6,841 nucleotides of DNA from an uncultured Muribaculaceae bacterium (GTDB taxonomy: Bacteria; Bacillota_I; Bacilli_A; RF39; UBA660), in NCBI GenBank assembly GCA_964549115.1, contig CAZJTX010000014.1, positions 1 through 6,841 of the forward strand, given 5' to 3'. Positions 1 through 6,841 of the stretch are shown piece after piece (positions within the stretch are counted from its first letter, which is position 1; every line of letters starts with the position of its first letter). A program made the position numbers and the translations under genes. Below the pieces are notes generated by a model that saw only the letters and a list, made by a program, of their open reading frames with translations, made no database searches and was not told the DNA's origin.

Positions 1-2
1 CT

Positions 3-65
3 CTTTCCTCTGAACTCTCTGTGTCAGGATCGGGCCACTGGAATGATCCATATATAGTAGAATAA
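3..65 (+). CDS. Possible 3' end of an upstream + strand ORF, truncated by the window start; candidate tail of the DGR target (variable) protein
   Basis: Frame 3 is open from the window edge to TAA at 63-65 (..LSSELSVSGSGHWNDPYIVE*). The first ~50 nt are much GC-richer than the surrounding intergenic DNA. A hairpin plus T-tract follows at 99-152. Aligning 3-14 to the DNA just after the TR (356-367) keeps the TR reading frame in register with this frame. Frame 1 is also open, to TAG at 55-57, so the frame choice is tentative. Confidence 0.3.
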   Translation, partial: LSSELSVSGSGHWNDPYIVE

Positions 66-226: not shown

Positions 227-355
227 ATGCTGGGATATGTTACTATGGTGTCGCCGTATAACGTAAATACTAATAACGCTAACGAGTTTCACTTGAATTC
301 GTCCGGCACTGTGAATAACAACAATGTGAACAATACAAATGGCGTGCGTCCCGTA
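227..355 (+). repeat. DGR template repeat (TR) candidate; boundaries approximate because no VR is available to align
   Basis: About 42% GC by hand count, in a locus that is far more AT-rich. The region is non-coding, but in one frame it reads (M)LGYVTMVSPYNVNTNNANEFHLNSSGTVNNNNVNNTNGVRPV. That frame holds 13 AAY codons over 260-340, and 26 of ~39 adenines sit in them. It ends with G-V-R-P-V, like the G-x-R-x-V ends of C-type-lectin-fold VRs. The GC-rich element ggcgtgcgtcccg (341-353) lies at the 3' end. Confidence 0.65.
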
Positions 356-542
356 TTTTCCTTTTAAACAATGGATGATAACTCCATAACATAGTTTATT
401 AGAGAGTGAAAGTTAGGGATCAGAAGAAAGGAAACAAACATAGTCCATGGCTTAGTCCTAAAAACGGAAGGATATATAATTACTTTGGCTTAGTAAATAA
501 TTGAAAAGTCGATACTAATTATGTCCTTTTTTAAGGAAATTT

Positions 543-2181: not shown

Positions 2182-2310
2182 ATGAAAAGAACTTGGCAAC
2201 CTAATAAAAGAAAAACGAAAAAGAATCATGGTTTTTTTGCTAGAAAGAAAAGTAAATCAGGAATACTTAATCGTAGACGTAAAAAAGGAAGAAAAAGACT
2301 AACACATTAA
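2182..2310 (+). CDS. rpmH: 50S ribosomal protein L34
   Basis: Not in the ORF track. Hand translation gives [42 protein letters not shown] (42 aa), which has the canonical L34 pattern MKRT(W/F/Y)QP..rkr.k.HGF..R. There is a strong AAGGAGG RBS, and the position upstream of rnpA is the conserved one. Confidence 0.92.
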
Positions 2311-2332
2311 AAATGTGTGTTTTTTATATATA

Positions 2333-2656
2333 ATGAAAAGATATGAAACTGTAAAGAGCAAAAGAGATTTTGATTATATTATAAAAAATGGAAAGAAATA
2401 TCAAAATAAGCATATTTCTGTTTTTGAATTAAAAAATAAGGAAGAAATAGCATTGTTTGGAATAGCGGTGTCTAAAAAGCTAGGTAATGCGGTATTTAGA
2501 AATAAAAAAAGAAGACAAATAAGATGTATTCTTGATAAATATAAGTATGAGTTTAAAAATAAGCATAGTTATATTATAATATTAAAAGAGGCCGGATCTA
2601 AAATTTCATATAAAATCTTAGAAGAAAGCATCAAAAATTTATTAAAAGAGGTCTAA
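2333..2656 (+). CDS. rnpA: Ribonuclease P protein component
   Basis: Contains the RNR motif region VSKKLGNAVFRNKKRRQIR and the N-terminal KSKRDFDYI. Size is ~107 aa and the rpmH-rnpA synteny is conserved. The track ORF starts at GTG 2315, but the ATG at 2333 (MKRYETVK..) is the more likely start. Confidence 0.85.
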   Translation: MKRYETVKSKRDFDYIIKNGKKYQNKHISVFELKNKEEIALFGIAVSKKLGNAVFRNKKRRQIRCILDKYKYEFKNKHSYIIILKEAGSKISYKILEESIKNLLKEV

Positions 2657-2657
2657 A

Positions 2658-3656
2658 ATGAATAAAAAAAAGATAATTATATTAATAATAGCTATGTTAT
2701 TTATAACCGGTTGTGGTAATAAAAAATATATTATTGATGATAAGGGAAATCCTTTAAAATATGAGGCGACAGGGCAAATGTTGGAAAATAACCTGTTATG
2801 TAGTCCAAGTAAAGATACTGAAGTATATAAATTATATAAAGAAAACGAAAAGCAATTAGTTTTTAAACTAGAAGAATTACCTAATTGTAATAATTTTAAA
2901 TTATCTTCAACAAAATCAAAGTCAATTTGGGAACACGTAGTAGTTAAAAGTACTGCATGGGTAATATTAAAAATAGGTAAAATTGTTAAAAATTTAGGTG
3001 TTTCTGTAATGATAGTAGGACTATTAATTAGAATTATATTAATGCCTCTTCAGATAAAAACTACTAAACAATCACAAAATATGAAGAAGGCAACGCCTGA
3101 AATACAAAAAATTGAAAGAAAATATAAGGATAAAACAGATAATGAATCAATGATGGCTAAGAGTCAAGAAATGATGTTGGTTTATAAAAAATATAAAGTA
3201 AACCCTGTATCAAGTTGTATAACAGCGTTTATTCAATTACCAATATTTTTAGCGTTTTTGCAGGCTATTTATAGAATACCTGTTATTTATGAACAAAAAT
3301 TATTGGGTTGGAATTTAGGTATGACCCCATCAGTTGGAATATCTAAGGGACATTATTCATATATCGCATTATTAATACTAATAATATTATCAACTTTCTT
3401 CTCGTTTAAATATTCTATGAGTCAAACTCCTCAAATGGGAGATGATAGTAAAAAACAAACAAATACAATGTTATATGTAATGATGGGTATAATAACATTA
3501 GCGTCGTTTAGTTTACCAACCGCAATAGCGTTATATTGGATTGTAACTAATGCATTTATATCGGTACAAACATTTATAACTACAAAGTTATTAGATGATA
3601 ATAAAAAAAGTAAAGTAAAAGTTAAAGTAGGTAAAAAAAATGGAAAAAATAAGTAG
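2658..3656 (+). CDS. yidC: Membrane protein insertase YidC (Gram-positive lipoprotein type, SpoIIIJ/YqjG-like)
   Basis: The signal peptide has a lipobox, ..LFITGC, with Cys19. Conserved insertase segments are present: PLQIKTTKQSQNMKKATPEIQKIERKYK, VNPVSSCITAFIQLPIF and LPTAIALYWIVTNAFISVQ. The C-terminal tail is lysine-rich. An aagagg RBS lies at 2646-2651. Confidence 0.9.
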   Translation: MNKKKIIILIIAMLFITGCGNKKYIIDDKGNPLKYEATGQMLENNLLCSPSKDTEVYKLYKENEKQLVFKLEELPNCNNFKLSSTKSKSIWEHVVVKSTAWVILKIGKIVKNLGVSVMIVGLLIRIILMPLQIKTTKQSQNMKKATPEIQKIERKYKDKTDNESMMAKSQEMMLVYKKYKVNPVSSCITAFIQLPIFLAFLQAIYRIPVIYEQKLLGWNLGMTPSVGISKGHYSYIALLILIILSTFFSFKYSMSQTPQMGDDSKKQTNTMLYVMMGIITLASFSLPTAIALYWIVTNAFISVQTFITTKLLDDNKKSKVKVKVGKKNGKNK

Positions 3657-4251
3657 TGAAGGTAAAACGTTTGAAGAGGCAATTGATCAATTAAAAGAAA
3701 AAGGTTATGTAGAAGAAGAATATGTATTTACTAAAGAAGAATCAACAAGTGGATTATTTAAACATAAAAATATAACACTTAATGCATATAAAAAAGAAGA
3801 TATATATGATGCGATAAAATCTTTTTTAAAAGACGTTATAGAAAATTTAGGACTAGAAGTGTCATTTGAAGTTAAAACTAAAGACGAAAGAACAACCATT
3901 CAAATATATACCGACAATAATTCTTTAATTATTGGTAGGGGCGGAAATACTATAAAAGCTTTAGAAACGTTAGTTAAACAGTATATATATAATTTAATAG
4001 GAGTTAATTTTATAGTTTCGTTAGATGTTGAAAACTATAAAGGTAAAAAACAAAAAAGAATTATAAGAATGGCTAAAGATTTAGCTAGAGAAGTTTCAAG
4101 AACAAAAATTAGAGTAGAGATGGATAGTATGAATTCTTTTGAAAGAAGGATAGTTCATAGTGCTCTATCTAATTATAGAGGAGTATCAACAAAGAGTGAA
4201 GGGGAAGAACCAAATAGGTATGTAGTAATCATGCCTGAAGATAAGGATTAA
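3640..4251 (+). CDS. jag: Jag/KhpB RNA-binding protein (Jag_N + KH + R3H domains)
   Basis: The N-terminus EGKTFEEAIDQLKEKG is Jag_N-like. A KH GxxG motif is present (IIGRGGNTIKALETLV), as is an R3H region (SFERRIVHSAL). The position between yidC and mnmE is conserved. It overlaps yidC by 17 nt. Confidence 0.85.
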   Translation: MEKISSEGKTFEEAIDQLKEKGYVEEEYVFTKEESTSGLFKHKNITLNAYKKEDIYDAIKSFLKDVIENLGLEVSFEVKTKDERTTIQIYTDNNSLIIGRGGNTIKALETLVKQYIYNLIGVNFIVSLDVENYKGKKQKRIIRMAKDLAREVSRTKIRVEMDSMNSFERRIVHSALSNYRGVSTKSEGEEPNRYVVIMPEDKD

Positions 4252-4252
4252 T

Positions 4253-5596
4253 ATGGAAGACACAATATGTGCAATCAGTTCAGGTATAGGGGAAGGTGCT
4301 ATATCAATAATAAGAGTGTCTGGTAAAGACGCTTTTTTAATCGTGAATAAAATTTTTAATAAAAATATATTAAAAGAAAAAAGTCATACTATTAAATATG
4401 GCTATATTATGGATGGAAAAAAAGTTGTAGACGAAGTTTTATTAATGATGATGAGATCACCAAAAACATATACAACGGAGGATATAATAGAAATTAATTG
4501 TCATGGTGGACACACAGTAGCAACCAAAGTATTAGAATTATTATTAAATAATGGATGTAGATTAGCTGAAGCAGGTGAGTTTACTAAAAGAGCATTTTTA
4601 AACGGACGAATTGACTTAACAAAAGCTGAAGCAGTTAATGATTTAATAAGTGCTAAAACAGATAAAGCAAGAGAACTTGCTATAAACACAGTAAGGGGTA
4701 ATTTATATAATAAAATTAATAATTTAAGAAACAGTATTGTTAAAATAATAGCTAACATAGAGGTTAATATAGATTATCCGGAATATAAAGATGAAGTAGA
4801 AGTAACTCACGATATGATTAAAACTCATTTAAAAGAAGTAAAAGAAGAACTTACAAACATAGTAAAAGAATCTAATGAATCGGATATCGTTAGATATGGA
4901 TTAAATGTAGCAATAGTGGGTAAACCTAATGTGGGAAAGAGTAGTTTGCTTAATATTTTAATAGATGAAGAAAAAGCAATTGTAACGGACATACCAGGTA
5001 CAACAAGGGATGTAGTAGAAGGTTCTATTATATTAGAGGGAATACCTATTAACTTTTTAGATACCGCAGGATTAAGAGATACAAAAGACATAGTCGAACA
5101 AATTGGTGTTAAAAAAAGTTATAAAGTAATTGATAAAGCCGACTTAATAATAGTGGTTTTAAATTATAATGAATTATTAACTAAAGAAGAAGAAAAGTTT
5201 ATAAAAGAGTTAGATAATAACAAATTAATTGTTTTTGTTAATAAAGATGACTTAAATAAAAAAATAGACATCAATTTCGATAATACAATATATGGAAATA
5301 CATTGTCGTTAGAGGGTATAAGAGAGTTAAAAAATAAAATAATCGACATGTTTAAATTAAAAGAATTAGTAAATAAAGATATAACTTATTTAAGTAATAT
5401 AAGACAAATAGATTTAATTAATAAAAGTATTAAATCTATTGAAAACGCAATTAAAAGCGAAAAAGAAGGGTTGCCTTTAGATTTAATAGAAATAGATCTT
5501 AAAGAATCATGGAAATATTTAGGTGAATTAACTGGTGAATTTTACGATGAGGAATTAGTTCACGAGTTATTTACTAATTTTTGTTTGGGAAAATAA
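4253..5596 (+). CDS. mnmE: tRNA modification GTPase MnmE (TrmE/ThdF)
   Basis: The N-terminus DTICAISSGIGEGAISIIRVSG is typical. G1 is GKPNVGKSSLLN, G2 is PGTTRD, G3 is DTAG and G4 is NKDD. The diagnostic C-terminal C-L-G-K tetrapeptide is present. Confidence 0.95.
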   Translation: MEDTICAISSGIGEGAISIIRVSGKDAFLIVNKIFNKNILKEKSHTIKYGYIMDGKKVVDEVLLMMMRSPKTYTTEDIIEINCHGGHTVATKVLELLLNNGCRLAEAGEFTKRAFLNGRIDLTKAEAVNDLISAKTDKARELAINTVRGNLYNKINNLRNSIVKIIANIEVNIDYPEYKDEVEVTHDMIKTHLKEVKEELTNIVKESNESDIVRYGLNVAIVGKPNVGKSSLLNILIDEEKAIVTDIPGTTRDVVEGSIILEGIPINFLDTAGLRDTKDIVEQIGVKKSYKVIDKADLIIVVLNYNELLTKEEEKFIKELDNNKLIVFVNKDDLNKKIDINFDNTIYGNTLSLEGIRELKNKIIDMFKLKELVNKDITYLSNIRQIDLINKSIKSIENAIKSEKEGLPLDLIEIDLKESWKYLGELTGEFYDEELVHELFTNFCLGK

Positions 5597-5597
5597 A

Positions 5598-6841
5598 ATG
5601 ATAGATGTAATTGTAGTAGGGGCAGGTCATGCCGGCATAGAAGCAGCACATATAACAGCTAAAATGGGTAAGAAAACCCTCCTTTTAACAATGAATATAA
5701 ACAACATTGCTGATATGGCATGTAATCCTTCAATAGGTGGAACATCTAAAGGAGTAATTGTAAGAGAGGTTGACGCTTTAGGAGGATTAATGGGAAGGGT
5801 AACAGATGTTTCCCATTTTCAAATAAAGATGTTAAACAAGTCTAAAGGCGCAGCAGTAAGGGCCTTACGCGCGCAAGTTGACAAAGTTTTATATCCTAAA
5901 AAAATGTTAGAAGAATTAAACAAAGTGTCAAACTTAGAGTTAAGAGAAGGTAAAGTAGAAGACTTAATTATTGAAGATAAAAAGGTGTTGGGAGTTATTT
6001 TAGATAATGGAGAAAAAATTTATAGCAAAATTGTAATATTAACAACTGGAACTTATACAAAATCTAATATTTTAATTGGAGATGAAAGTATAGAAGAAGG
6101 TCCACATGGTGAAGATAGGTCTAATCATTTAACTGATAACTTAAAAAAAGAAGGTATAAACATTTTAAGACTTAAAACTGGTACTCCTCCTAGAATTAAA
6201 GATTCATCAATTGATTTTACTAATATGATCGTGGAAAAAGGAGACGATGAGTTATATACCTTTAGCTTTGATACAATTCCTAGCTATGATCCTAAAAATC
6301 AAAGAGATTGTTATTTAATATATACACATAAAAAAACTCATGATTTAATTAATGAAAATATAGAAAAAAGCGCTATGTATAGTGGTTTAGTAACCGGCAC
6401 AGGAGCAAGATATTGTCCTTCAATTGAGGATAAGCTTGTAAAGTTTAGCGATAAAGAAAGACATCAAATATTTTTAGAACCAGAAAGTAATTACACTGAT
6501 GAATGGTATTTACAAGGATTTTCTACAAGTTTACCAAGAGACATACAAGAGAAAATGGTACACAGTTTACCAGGTTTAGAAAATGCCGAAATATTAAAGT
6601 ATGCTTACGCTATAGAATATGATGCTATCGATCCAATTCAAATATATCCTAGTTTAGAAAATAAACTTATATCTAATTTATTTACCGCGGGTCAAATAAA
6701 TGGAACAAGTGGATATGAAGAAGCAGCTGGTCAAGGTATAATGGCGGGTATAAATGCTGTATTAAAACTAAATAAAGAAGAACCTTTCATATTAAAAAGA
6801 AGCGAAGCATATATCGGTGTAATGATTGATGACTTAGTAAC
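5598..6841 (+). CDS. mnmG: tRNA uridine 5-carboxymethylaminomethyl modification enzyme MnmG (GidA), N-terminal ~414 codons, runs off the window end
   Basis: Not in the ORF track because it has no stop in the window. The ATG at 5598 lies 1 nt after the mnmE stop. Translation gives MIDVIVVGAGHAGIEAAHITAKMGKKTLLLTMNINNIADMACNPSIGGTSKGVIVREVDALGGLMG.., which has the FAD-binding GxGxxG motif and the canonical MnmG N-terminal signature. The frame stays open to 6841. Confidence 0.95.
   Translation, partial: MIDVIVVGAGHAGIEAAHITAKMGKKTLLLTMNINNIADMACNPSIGGTSKGVIVREVDALGGLMGRVTDVSHFQIKMLNKSKGAAVRALRAQVDKVLYPKKMLEELNKVSNLELREGKVEDLIIEDKKVLGVILDNGEKIYSKIVILTTGTYTKSNILIGDESIEEGPHGEDRSNHLTDNLKKEGINILRLKTGTPPRIKDSSIDFTNMIVEKGDDELYTFSFDTIPSYDPKNQRDCYLIYTHKKTHDLINENIEKSAMYSGLVTGTGARYCPSIEDKLVKFSDKERHQIFLEPESNYTDEWYLQGFSTSLPRDIQEKMVHSLPGLENAEILKYAYAIEYDAIDPIQIYPSLENKLISNLFTAGQINGTSGYEEAAGQGIMAGINAVLKLNKEEPFILKRSEAYIGVMIDDLV

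Follow-up and report, generated by a model that had tools for sequence, protein, structure and literature searches.

The probable template repeat of a chromosomal diversity-generating retroelement and the RNA helices predicted around it in an uncultured bacterium

Between the truncated 3′ end of one gene and a reverse transcriptase (RT) gene lies a short, asparagine-rich open reading frame (ORF), and the question that it raises is whether it is a gene at all, or instead the template repeat (TR) of a diversity-generating retroelement (DGR), as an earlier note made from the letters alone had proposed for positions 227-367. The stretch analysed, hereafter the window, comprises 6,841 nucleotides from an uncultured Muribaculaceae bacterium (GenBank assembly GCA_964549115.1, contig CAZJTX010000014.1; GTDB lineage Bacillota_I, Bacilli_A, RF39, UBA660), and the features located below, up to and including the RT, lie on its forward strand. 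The analysis makes it very likely that window positions 245-355 are the TR of a chromosomal DGR, the elements of which follow one another in the order target gene with its variable repeat (VR), TR, structured RNA, avd and RT. As a TR/VR system it is an ordinary, well-formed example of an already known kind of DGR, and the clade-wide RNA scaffold together with the co-oriented TR-avd-RT order are the only parts of it that might be new.

A repeat search detected no second copy of 227-367 within the window. The VR was found on a public metagenome contig of 599 nt, L012, which was recovered by a peptide search with the frame of 227-367. Positions 165-509 of L012 and 1-345 of the window agree in 344 of 345 bases, with one mismatch, and therefore L012 1-164 extends the window upstream; it is this extension that holds the VR, so that the second copy predicted by the earlier note is present directly upstream of window position 1. 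The ungapped alignment of window 246-355 to L012 51-160 (110 nt), from which the TR proper (245-355, the RNA template for the VR) was delimited, shows mismatches at 20 of the 35 adenines and at none of the 75 other bases (Fisher p = 7e-13), and the expectation that differences would spare T, G and C was thus borne out. Position 245 is A in the TR and C in the VR copy, and mismatches at bases other than adenine start at 244 on the 5′ side and at 356 on the 3′ side, which sets the limits of TR/VR homology. This confinement of mismatches to adenines is the defining signature of a DGR TR/VR pair, of which the window holds the TR. The codons altered in the VR are Asn codons together with CAC, ACT and ACA, and they fall within the two Asn-dense blocks that had been noticed between scaffold codons, with EF.L.SSG.V and GVRP unchanged. 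Public (Logan) assemblies that carry an identical RT begin or end at window position 284, 325 or 326, inside the TR, or at 26, as is expected of assembly breaks at a repeat or a hypervariable site.

The ORF 227-367 runs from ATG to TAA over 46 codons and translates as MLGYVTMVSPYNVNTNNANEFHLNSSGTVNNNNVNNTNGVRPVFSF before its stop codon. A recount agrees that its 13 Asn codons are all AAY (7 AAT, 6 AAC) and that AAA and AAG are absent. Measured against the codon usage of the real genes in the window, in which AAY accounts for 7.5% and AAR for 12.8% of codons, this bias is improbable, at least 13 AAY in 46 codons having a probability of 2e-5 and a complete lack of AAR one of 2e-3. Codon positions 1 and 2 hold 33 of the 36 adenines of 245-355, and adenine substitution converts none of the TR codons to a stop codon, which agrees with what had been anticipated for AAY codons. 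Because these 33 adenines occupy the first two positions of AAY-like codons, about 10^19 protein variants, as an upper figure, could be encoded without a stop. The G+C content of the TR is 42%, against 26% for the whole window.

According to Wu et al. 2018 (PMC5758913), the VR ends in an initiation of mutagenic homing (IMH) element and the TR in a non-identical counterpart, IMH*, the GC-rich start of which marks the 3′ limit of A-to-N changes. The element 341-353, GGCGTGCGTCCCG, which encodes G-V-R-P and recurs without change in the VR, is the counterpart of the GC-rich first part of IMH/IMH*; at 84.6% G+C it is the top 13-mer of the entire window, and not just of the intergenic region for which this had been remarked. 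Its description as an IMH*-like element therefore holds in so far as it is the GC-rich end common to TR and VR, and does not hold for the TR-specific part, which is 357-365. This stretch differs from the VR flank at positions other than adenine, probably fixes the 3′ boundary of copying and, by analogy, would be the TR-specific, uncopied flank equivalent to IMH*. In the same way, the reading of 227-367 as a template was upheld for 245-355 and had to be given up for 227-244 and 356-367, which are flanking RNA-structure elements.

Related loci were used to define these flanking elements. An RT scan of species-representative genomes confirmed 222 relatives, 80 of which were kept for locus analysis. 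Self-comparison of each locus revealed an adenine-biased repeat pair in 39 of the 80; the GC-rich G-x-R-P end recurs in the related TRs and VRs, and an IMH-like flank pattern is seen in 32 loci. In the window, the segments on both sides of the TR appear to be strands of two long-range helices. The outer one, here called the stop duplex, pairs its 5′ strand at 231-241, 3 nt upstream of the TR 5′ boundary, with its 3′ strand at 437-447 (RNAduplex). The inner one, the template:primer duplex, pairs a template-side strand at 357-365 (TTTCCTTTT, from RNAalifold) with a primer-side strand at 426-434 (GAAAGGAAA), which is followed by C435 and A436; this 426-436 segment was assigned from alignment A2 and helix statistics. 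In AACA 433-436, A434 and A436 are invariant in alignment A2, and A433 and C435 are at least 90% conserved. The two primer-duplex strands enclose a loop region, 366-425, in which there are local hairpins (ATGGA/TCCAT at 371-387 is one) and a decayed relic of target tail codons, and its position is that of the Avd-binding stem-loop in the Bordetella RNA. Comparison with relatives delimits, at 448-464, a short stem-loop, GGC-TTA-G[T]CC, and then an unpaired A-rich TAAAAAC, an arrangement like that of the stem-loop and A-minor adenosines in the Bordetella stop element; RNAfold does not recover this hairpin because of its bulge. An Rfam search of the window at a permissive threshold gave no match, and ARAGORN found no tRNA in it.

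The relatives share, downstream of the TR, a motif GGAAACAAG...TYCC, followed by a hairpin and by TAAAWA. In the sole consensus helix returned by RNAalifold, the GGAA of this motif pairs with the bases immediately 3′ of the TR. For the primer duplex in 32 loci, 79% of cells are paired, compared with 66% after shuffling, and covariation is 0.384, compared with 0.152; none of 500 shuffles reaches the observed level, slid registers give lower values, and the covarying pairs include TCTC/GAGA, TTTCA/TGAAA, CTACC/GGTAA and ACTCC/GGAGA. The first TR/VR mismatch at a base other than adenine lies within -2 to +7 of the start of the primer helix in 27 of the 32 loci. As regards the stop duplex, the 11-13 nt after AACA pair in relatives with a segment that lies 3-69 nt before the TR 5′ boundary, and in 25 of 32 loci few or none of 200 shuffles equal this pairing. 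In the ungapped composite alignment A4, 93.8% of the stop-duplex cells are paired, compensatory changes occur in 10 of 11 pairs, and the score is reached by 0 of 500 shuffles; the stop duplex of the window is homologous to those of the relatives in position and sequence. The hairpin and the A-rich run after it are found in about three quarters of the 32 related loci, with stems that differ (GGGC/GCCC, GGAC/GTCC, GGT/ACC, GACT/AGTC). A local GGAA...TTCC hairpin 3′ of the primer strand was also considered and was rejected, TYCC showing no covariation with GGAA and pairing with the leader instead.

The structure of the Bordetella ribonucleoprotein (RNP) offers a model for how such an RNA may work. 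In this RNP, a template:primer duplex formed by the TR 3′ end and the spacer (Sp) ends in the priming adenosine, Sp A56, which is followed by two nucleotides; the spacer then pairs over 11 bp with a segment upstream of the TR, in a duplex that stops the complementary DNA (cDNA) just before it; and a short stem-loop comes next, with unpaired adenosines that dock into G:C pairs of this 11-bp duplex (bioRxiv 10.1101/2023.10.23.563531). In the mechanism proposed for the window, a transcript from about 216 would fold so that 231-241 and 437-447 form the stop duplex and 357-365 and 426-434 the template:primer duplex, the TR being looped out between them, and the RT-Avd complex would bind the folded RNA. 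The conserved adenosine that closes the primer strand, about A434, would prime the synthesis of cDNA, which would start opposite 356 or 355 and proceed 3′ to 5′ through the TR with random nucleotides inserted opposite adenines, until it halts at the stop duplex just past 245. The cDNA would then replace the VR in the target gene, guided by the common GC-rich end at 341-353. Because the order and spacing of the elements match those of the Bordetella RNP, A434 is the predicted priming nucleotide, 356 or 355 the predicted first templated base, the stop is placed just past 245, and 357-365 is taken to stay uncopied.

Several observations weigh against this reading of the locus, or at least against parts of it. 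The VR lies outside the window and is known from one metagenome contig of 599 nt from another sample, and past window position 345 the TR copy of L012 itself diverges, with an indel and substitutions. A single VR allele has been recovered, so that no population-level variation is seen for this organism. The stop duplex of the window has 10 bp, is interrupted by one A/G mismatch and does not reach significance when taken alone (p = 0.19), and the primer duplex is absent from the unconstrained minimum-energy fold of the window RNA. The 5′ strands of alignment A4 were selected by duplex energy, which favours pairing, a bias that the shuffle control addresses in part. Both the priming nucleotide and the point at which cDNA begins are predicted by analogy. 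The Pfam and NCBIfam scores of Avd fall under their curated cut-offs. Finally, an AlphaFold2 model of a related target, P0017, built on a 60-sequence alignment, has a mean predicted local distance difference test (pLDDT) score of 43, with the C-terminal domain below 50.

The alternative that survives best accepts 245-355 as a DGR TR and takes the element for a fossil, the VR having been diversified formerly and the system being idle now in this lineage. It is unlikely, although the recovery of one VR allele, the variant TR 3′ flank in another strain and the internal mismatch in the stop duplex of the window would all fit it. Three scans for further VR alleles or contigs crossing the window start, two of JGI metagenomes and one of IMG/VR, the last two with a pattern that has N at each TR adenine, returned none. 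What speaks for a functional element is that the reading frames of RT and avd are intact, with YMDD and IGNITSQ present, that the TR is identical in five independent assemblies (Logan contigs L001-L005, over the parts that they cover), that the RNA elements have been retained and that assemblies break at both TR and VR. With no mismatch at any of the 75 non-adenine positions, TR and VR have not drifted apart since homing last took place. In populations, elements of this clade are active, as shown by targets of the type found at locus L019: in 60 such sequences of 82-96% identity, entropy reaches 1.5 bits or more in 28 columns, and 20 of these belong to the VR and coincide with TR Asn codons. 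This pattern is no proof that the element is active in the present organism.

It has also been considered that 227-367 is a real small gene for an Asn-rich peptide of 46 residues, for which an open frame from ATG to TAA and the calling of similar Asn-rich ORFs as genes in other assemblies (P0001-P0005) could be adduced. This is very improbable. The frame is merely that of the target C-terminus, which is why it is regarded as a relic and no gene, as the earlier note had supposed; the ORFs called in relatives differ in start and end; GGAGAG adjoins the ATG of the frame without a spacer, so that a properly spaced ribosome-binding site is missing; and Pfam gives no match. The exclusive use of AAY with no AAR is a TR-like bias that is unlike the genes of this genome, and the two ends of the ORF each supply one strand of a covarying helix. 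Weakest of all, and effectively refuted, is the notion of an ordinary decaying duplicate, a pseudogene fragment that derives from the neighbouring gene at its 3′ end and is unrelated to reverse transcription: the TR does clearly stem from duplication of the target 3′ end, with relic tail codons left after it, yet neutral decay would not restrict 20 differences to adenines and leave 75 other bases intact (p = 7e-13), would not, in 35 of 39 related loci, put the copy directly before avd and RT and would not maintain covarying helices around it.

The divergent end of L012 was compared with the window separately. L012 510-599, set against window 346-405, is the same TR 3′ flank with about 35 extra bases, and it still reads as the target tail, ...VVSLSTIASVSGFGQWNDPYVVQTD and a stop codon (QWNDPYVV). 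The flank in the window is a shortened and decayed version, in which CAATGGATGAT..CCATA is a remnant of QWNDPY. That the flank of L012 reads as target tail accords with a TR that arose when the target 3′ end was duplicated, as well as with the idea of a relic frame. L012 terminates 8 nt past the relic stop codon. The possibility that its divergent 3′ part is a chimera with a second target gene was rejected, because this part aligns as the TR flank itself, interrupted by an indel of about 35 nt.

Nearly all relatives of the RT come from metagenome-assembled genomes of uncultured gut Bacilli, ‘Tenericutes’ or Mollicutes, with a top identity of 50-53%, and one is located on a closed chromosome of 1.26 Mb; the organism of the window, for its part, appears to be a low-GC gut bacterium. 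Among the species-representative genomes no genome of the same species was found, the closest RT relative being 50-53% identical, and an exact TR-end pattern has 0 matches in them. An Avd homologue lies directly upstream of RT in 74 of the 80 loci, and the single-strand order VR-TR-avd-RT is found in 35 of the 39 loci with a repeat pair, the others being one avd-TR-RT, one avd-RT-TR and two without an Avd match. The broader proposal drawn from these loci is that there is a large DGR clade in gut Bacilli with small genomes in which the whole RNA, from the leader strand through TR, primer duplex and stop duplex to stem-loop and A-run, lies upstream of avd and RT, with a covarying scaffold and an invariant AACA that belong to no Rfam family; it is held with moderate confidence, clearly less than the identification of the TR.

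The principles of DGR function are unchanged by these results. Codon bias alone, namely Asn encoded by AAY only together with a GC-rich end, can reveal a true DGR template whose VR lies outside the window. The covarying helices, in turn, lead to predictions at the level of the base, with a cDNA start at about 355/356 from about A434 and a stop just past 245, and they extend the structural model of the Bordetella phage to a distant Gram-positive clade with another gene order. If it is true that the scaffold is undescribed, TR boundaries and cDNA start sites would become predictable to the base from sequence, and the architecture of the Bordetella RNP would hold even though a strand of the stop duplex lies outside avd.

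Some related loci depart from the common pattern. Locus L015, from a close relative, has two TR-like copies upstream of avd, at 345-463 and 852-952, each of them adenine-biased against the same VR. At L008/L009 8269-11750, a TR-like segment (10001-10171) lies between two paralogous target genes, and gene calling placed no RT in the 10 kb to the left or to the right. The target of L019 (7187-8881; proteins P0017-P0136) has more than 7,700 database homologues.

Among known systems, that of the Bordetella phage BPP-1 (mtd-avd-TR-brt), the prototype of DGRs, is the natural reference. The window resembles it in an RT with IGxxxSQ and YMDD, an Avd-like protein, an AAY-rich TR and adenine-only TR/VR differences, in the GC-rich end common to TR and VR followed by a differing flank (IMH versus IMH*), and in having the same RNA elements in the same order and spacing: a conserved A, two nucleotides, a stop duplex of 11 positions, a stem-loop and adenosines. 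It differs in that the TR and the structured RNA 3′ of it lie upstream of avd and not between avd and RT; because avd is downstream here, an untranslated leader carries the 5′ strand of the stop duplex, which in Bordetella is inside avd. Further differences are the chromosomal location beside rpmH with no phage, a target that is not Mtd, about 20 constant codons after the VR and an RT that is 100 residues longer, with a Lys-rich insertion. The DGRs of Legionella pneumophila and Treponema denticola (TvpA) are, like this one, chromosomal and vary the C-terminal region of a protein; that of Treponema has, as given in PMC5758913, an HRDC accessory gene and another gene order. With avd, TR, RT and no other accessory gene, the locus is like class B in the main text of Wu et al. 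(PMC5758913), where the orders are B1 avd-TR-RT, B2 avd-RT-TR and B3 TR-(avd)-RT with avd reversed. The co-oriented TR-avd-RT of the window falls outside B1-B3 of that main text, and it may be among the 48 supplementary variants. The ‘tentaclins’ of gut phages (PMC10743442) share with it a DUF6273 target, the match of the present target being below threshold, and differ by their phage context, as the element here is cellular and phage RTs are at most 39% identical to its RT; that of phage nd12 is among the nearest phage matches.

The target gene is represented in the window by its 3′ end at 1-65, the constant tail after the VR, which in frame 3 reads LSSELSVSGSGHWNDPYIVE up to the stop codon at 63-65, as delimited by that codon and by the overlap with L012. 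In L012, 2-229 is an open frame that ends ...GVRPVVSLSSELSVSGSGHWNDPYIVE and a stop codon; its final 20 codons are those encoded by window 1-65, and the part of the target recovered for this organism amounts to the last 75 codons. The VR thus sits in a protein-coding target near its C-terminus. Proteins of 500-650 residues encoded in related loci have C-termini homologous to this region, related target C-termini end like the tail in window 1-65, and the target tail is in frame with the relic frame of the TR. Full-length related targets have 300-650 residues and a hydrophobic N-terminal segment that is signal- or anchor-like; the target in related loci looks secreted or surface-anchored. The target tail matches DUF6273 (PF19789) with E = 7e-4, below the Pfam threshold, and the target of one relative does so above threshold, with E = 1e-10. 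DUF6273 domains are diversified by DGRs and have been modelled as C-type-lectin-like (PMC10743442). Variants would fall in a C-terminal, DUF6273-like domain of the target, probably with a C-type-lectin-like fold, and for the organism the element is probably a means of varying a protein in its C-terminal domain. The profile of the related target family gave no match to PDB sequences, and NCBIfam and Pfam gave none on the full-length related targets (three each).

Two further target-like genes were noticed. L014 76-426 holds a second one, about 90% identical to the target flanks and with another downstream context; its VR-like stretch shows 15 A and 6 non-A differences from the window TR and lacks 15 nt, and the coverage of the contig is 0.9x. 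This gene may represent a second target that is remote or in decay, or else the orthologue carried by a related strain. On the 225-kb contig L013, an ORF of 82 residues at 3916-4164 (P0012) resembles a VR-bearing target C-terminus. It stands alone, next to a Fic-domain gene in a neighbourhood of ribosomal protein genes; the 10 kb around it include no RT, and it may be a truncated or remote target.

Downstream of the structured RNA, avd (accessory variability determinant) occupies 543-890 and encodes 115 residues. It was recognised by Pfam, NCBIfam and PHROG profiles (bAvd, E = 2.4e-7; DivGenRetAVD, 1.7e-7; ‘Avd protein of DGR’, 2.2e-10), and a search against PDB sequences gave no meaningful match. 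The DGR RT, of 428 residues, follows at 862-2148 and overlaps avd by 29 nt. It matches RVT_1 (E = 3e-18) and the PHROG reverse transcriptase (E = 1e-61). In RTs of the DGR clade, [I/L]GxxxSQ replaces the QGxxxSP of group II intron and retron RTs, and the catalytic motif is YxDD; the present RT has SIGNITSQ and YMDD. Its top match among PDB sequences is 8ub7_A, a chain of 328 residues deposited as ‘Reverse transcriptase’ (E = 1e-24; a group II intron RT gives 3e-8), to which it aligns as IGNITSQL/IGSLTSQL and YMDD/YMDD. This chain is taken here to be the Bordetella phage RT (bRT), as its length and the series of its entry fit the cryo-EM study. Compared with bRT (chain 159-169), residues of about 166-221 of the window RT (window about 1357-1524) contain a Lys/Glu-rich insertion of about 45 residues.

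The cassette ends 33 nt before rpmH, which opens the series rpmH, rnpA, yidC, jag, mnmE and mnmG (2182-6841), and it is chromosomal, since these genes come after RT. The rpmH-mnmG block is the usual origin-proximal one. Within 10 kb of RT, these genes are absent from all 80 related loci, save for one weak MnmE-like match (L059), and the location of the cassette is therefore not conserved.

Upstream of the TR, an inverted repeat at 99-122, with a 10-bp stem, is followed by a small CAC-GAAA-GTG hairpin and a T-rich run; the repeat scan listed it on the minus strand, the element being palindromic. It is probably the terminator of the target gene, and a hairpin after the target gene is present in relatives too. 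Direct reading of the sequence points to a promoter-like site at 181-209, made up of TTGACA, 14 nt and TG-A-TAATTT (an extended -10), from which the TR transcript might start near 216. The site is put forward tentatively because a consensus scan for promoters and terminators did not list TTGACA...TGaTAATTT. At this predicted transcript start, 216-230 can form a 5-bp hairpin, GCATC-GGAGA-GATGC, directly before the 5′ strand of the stop duplex.

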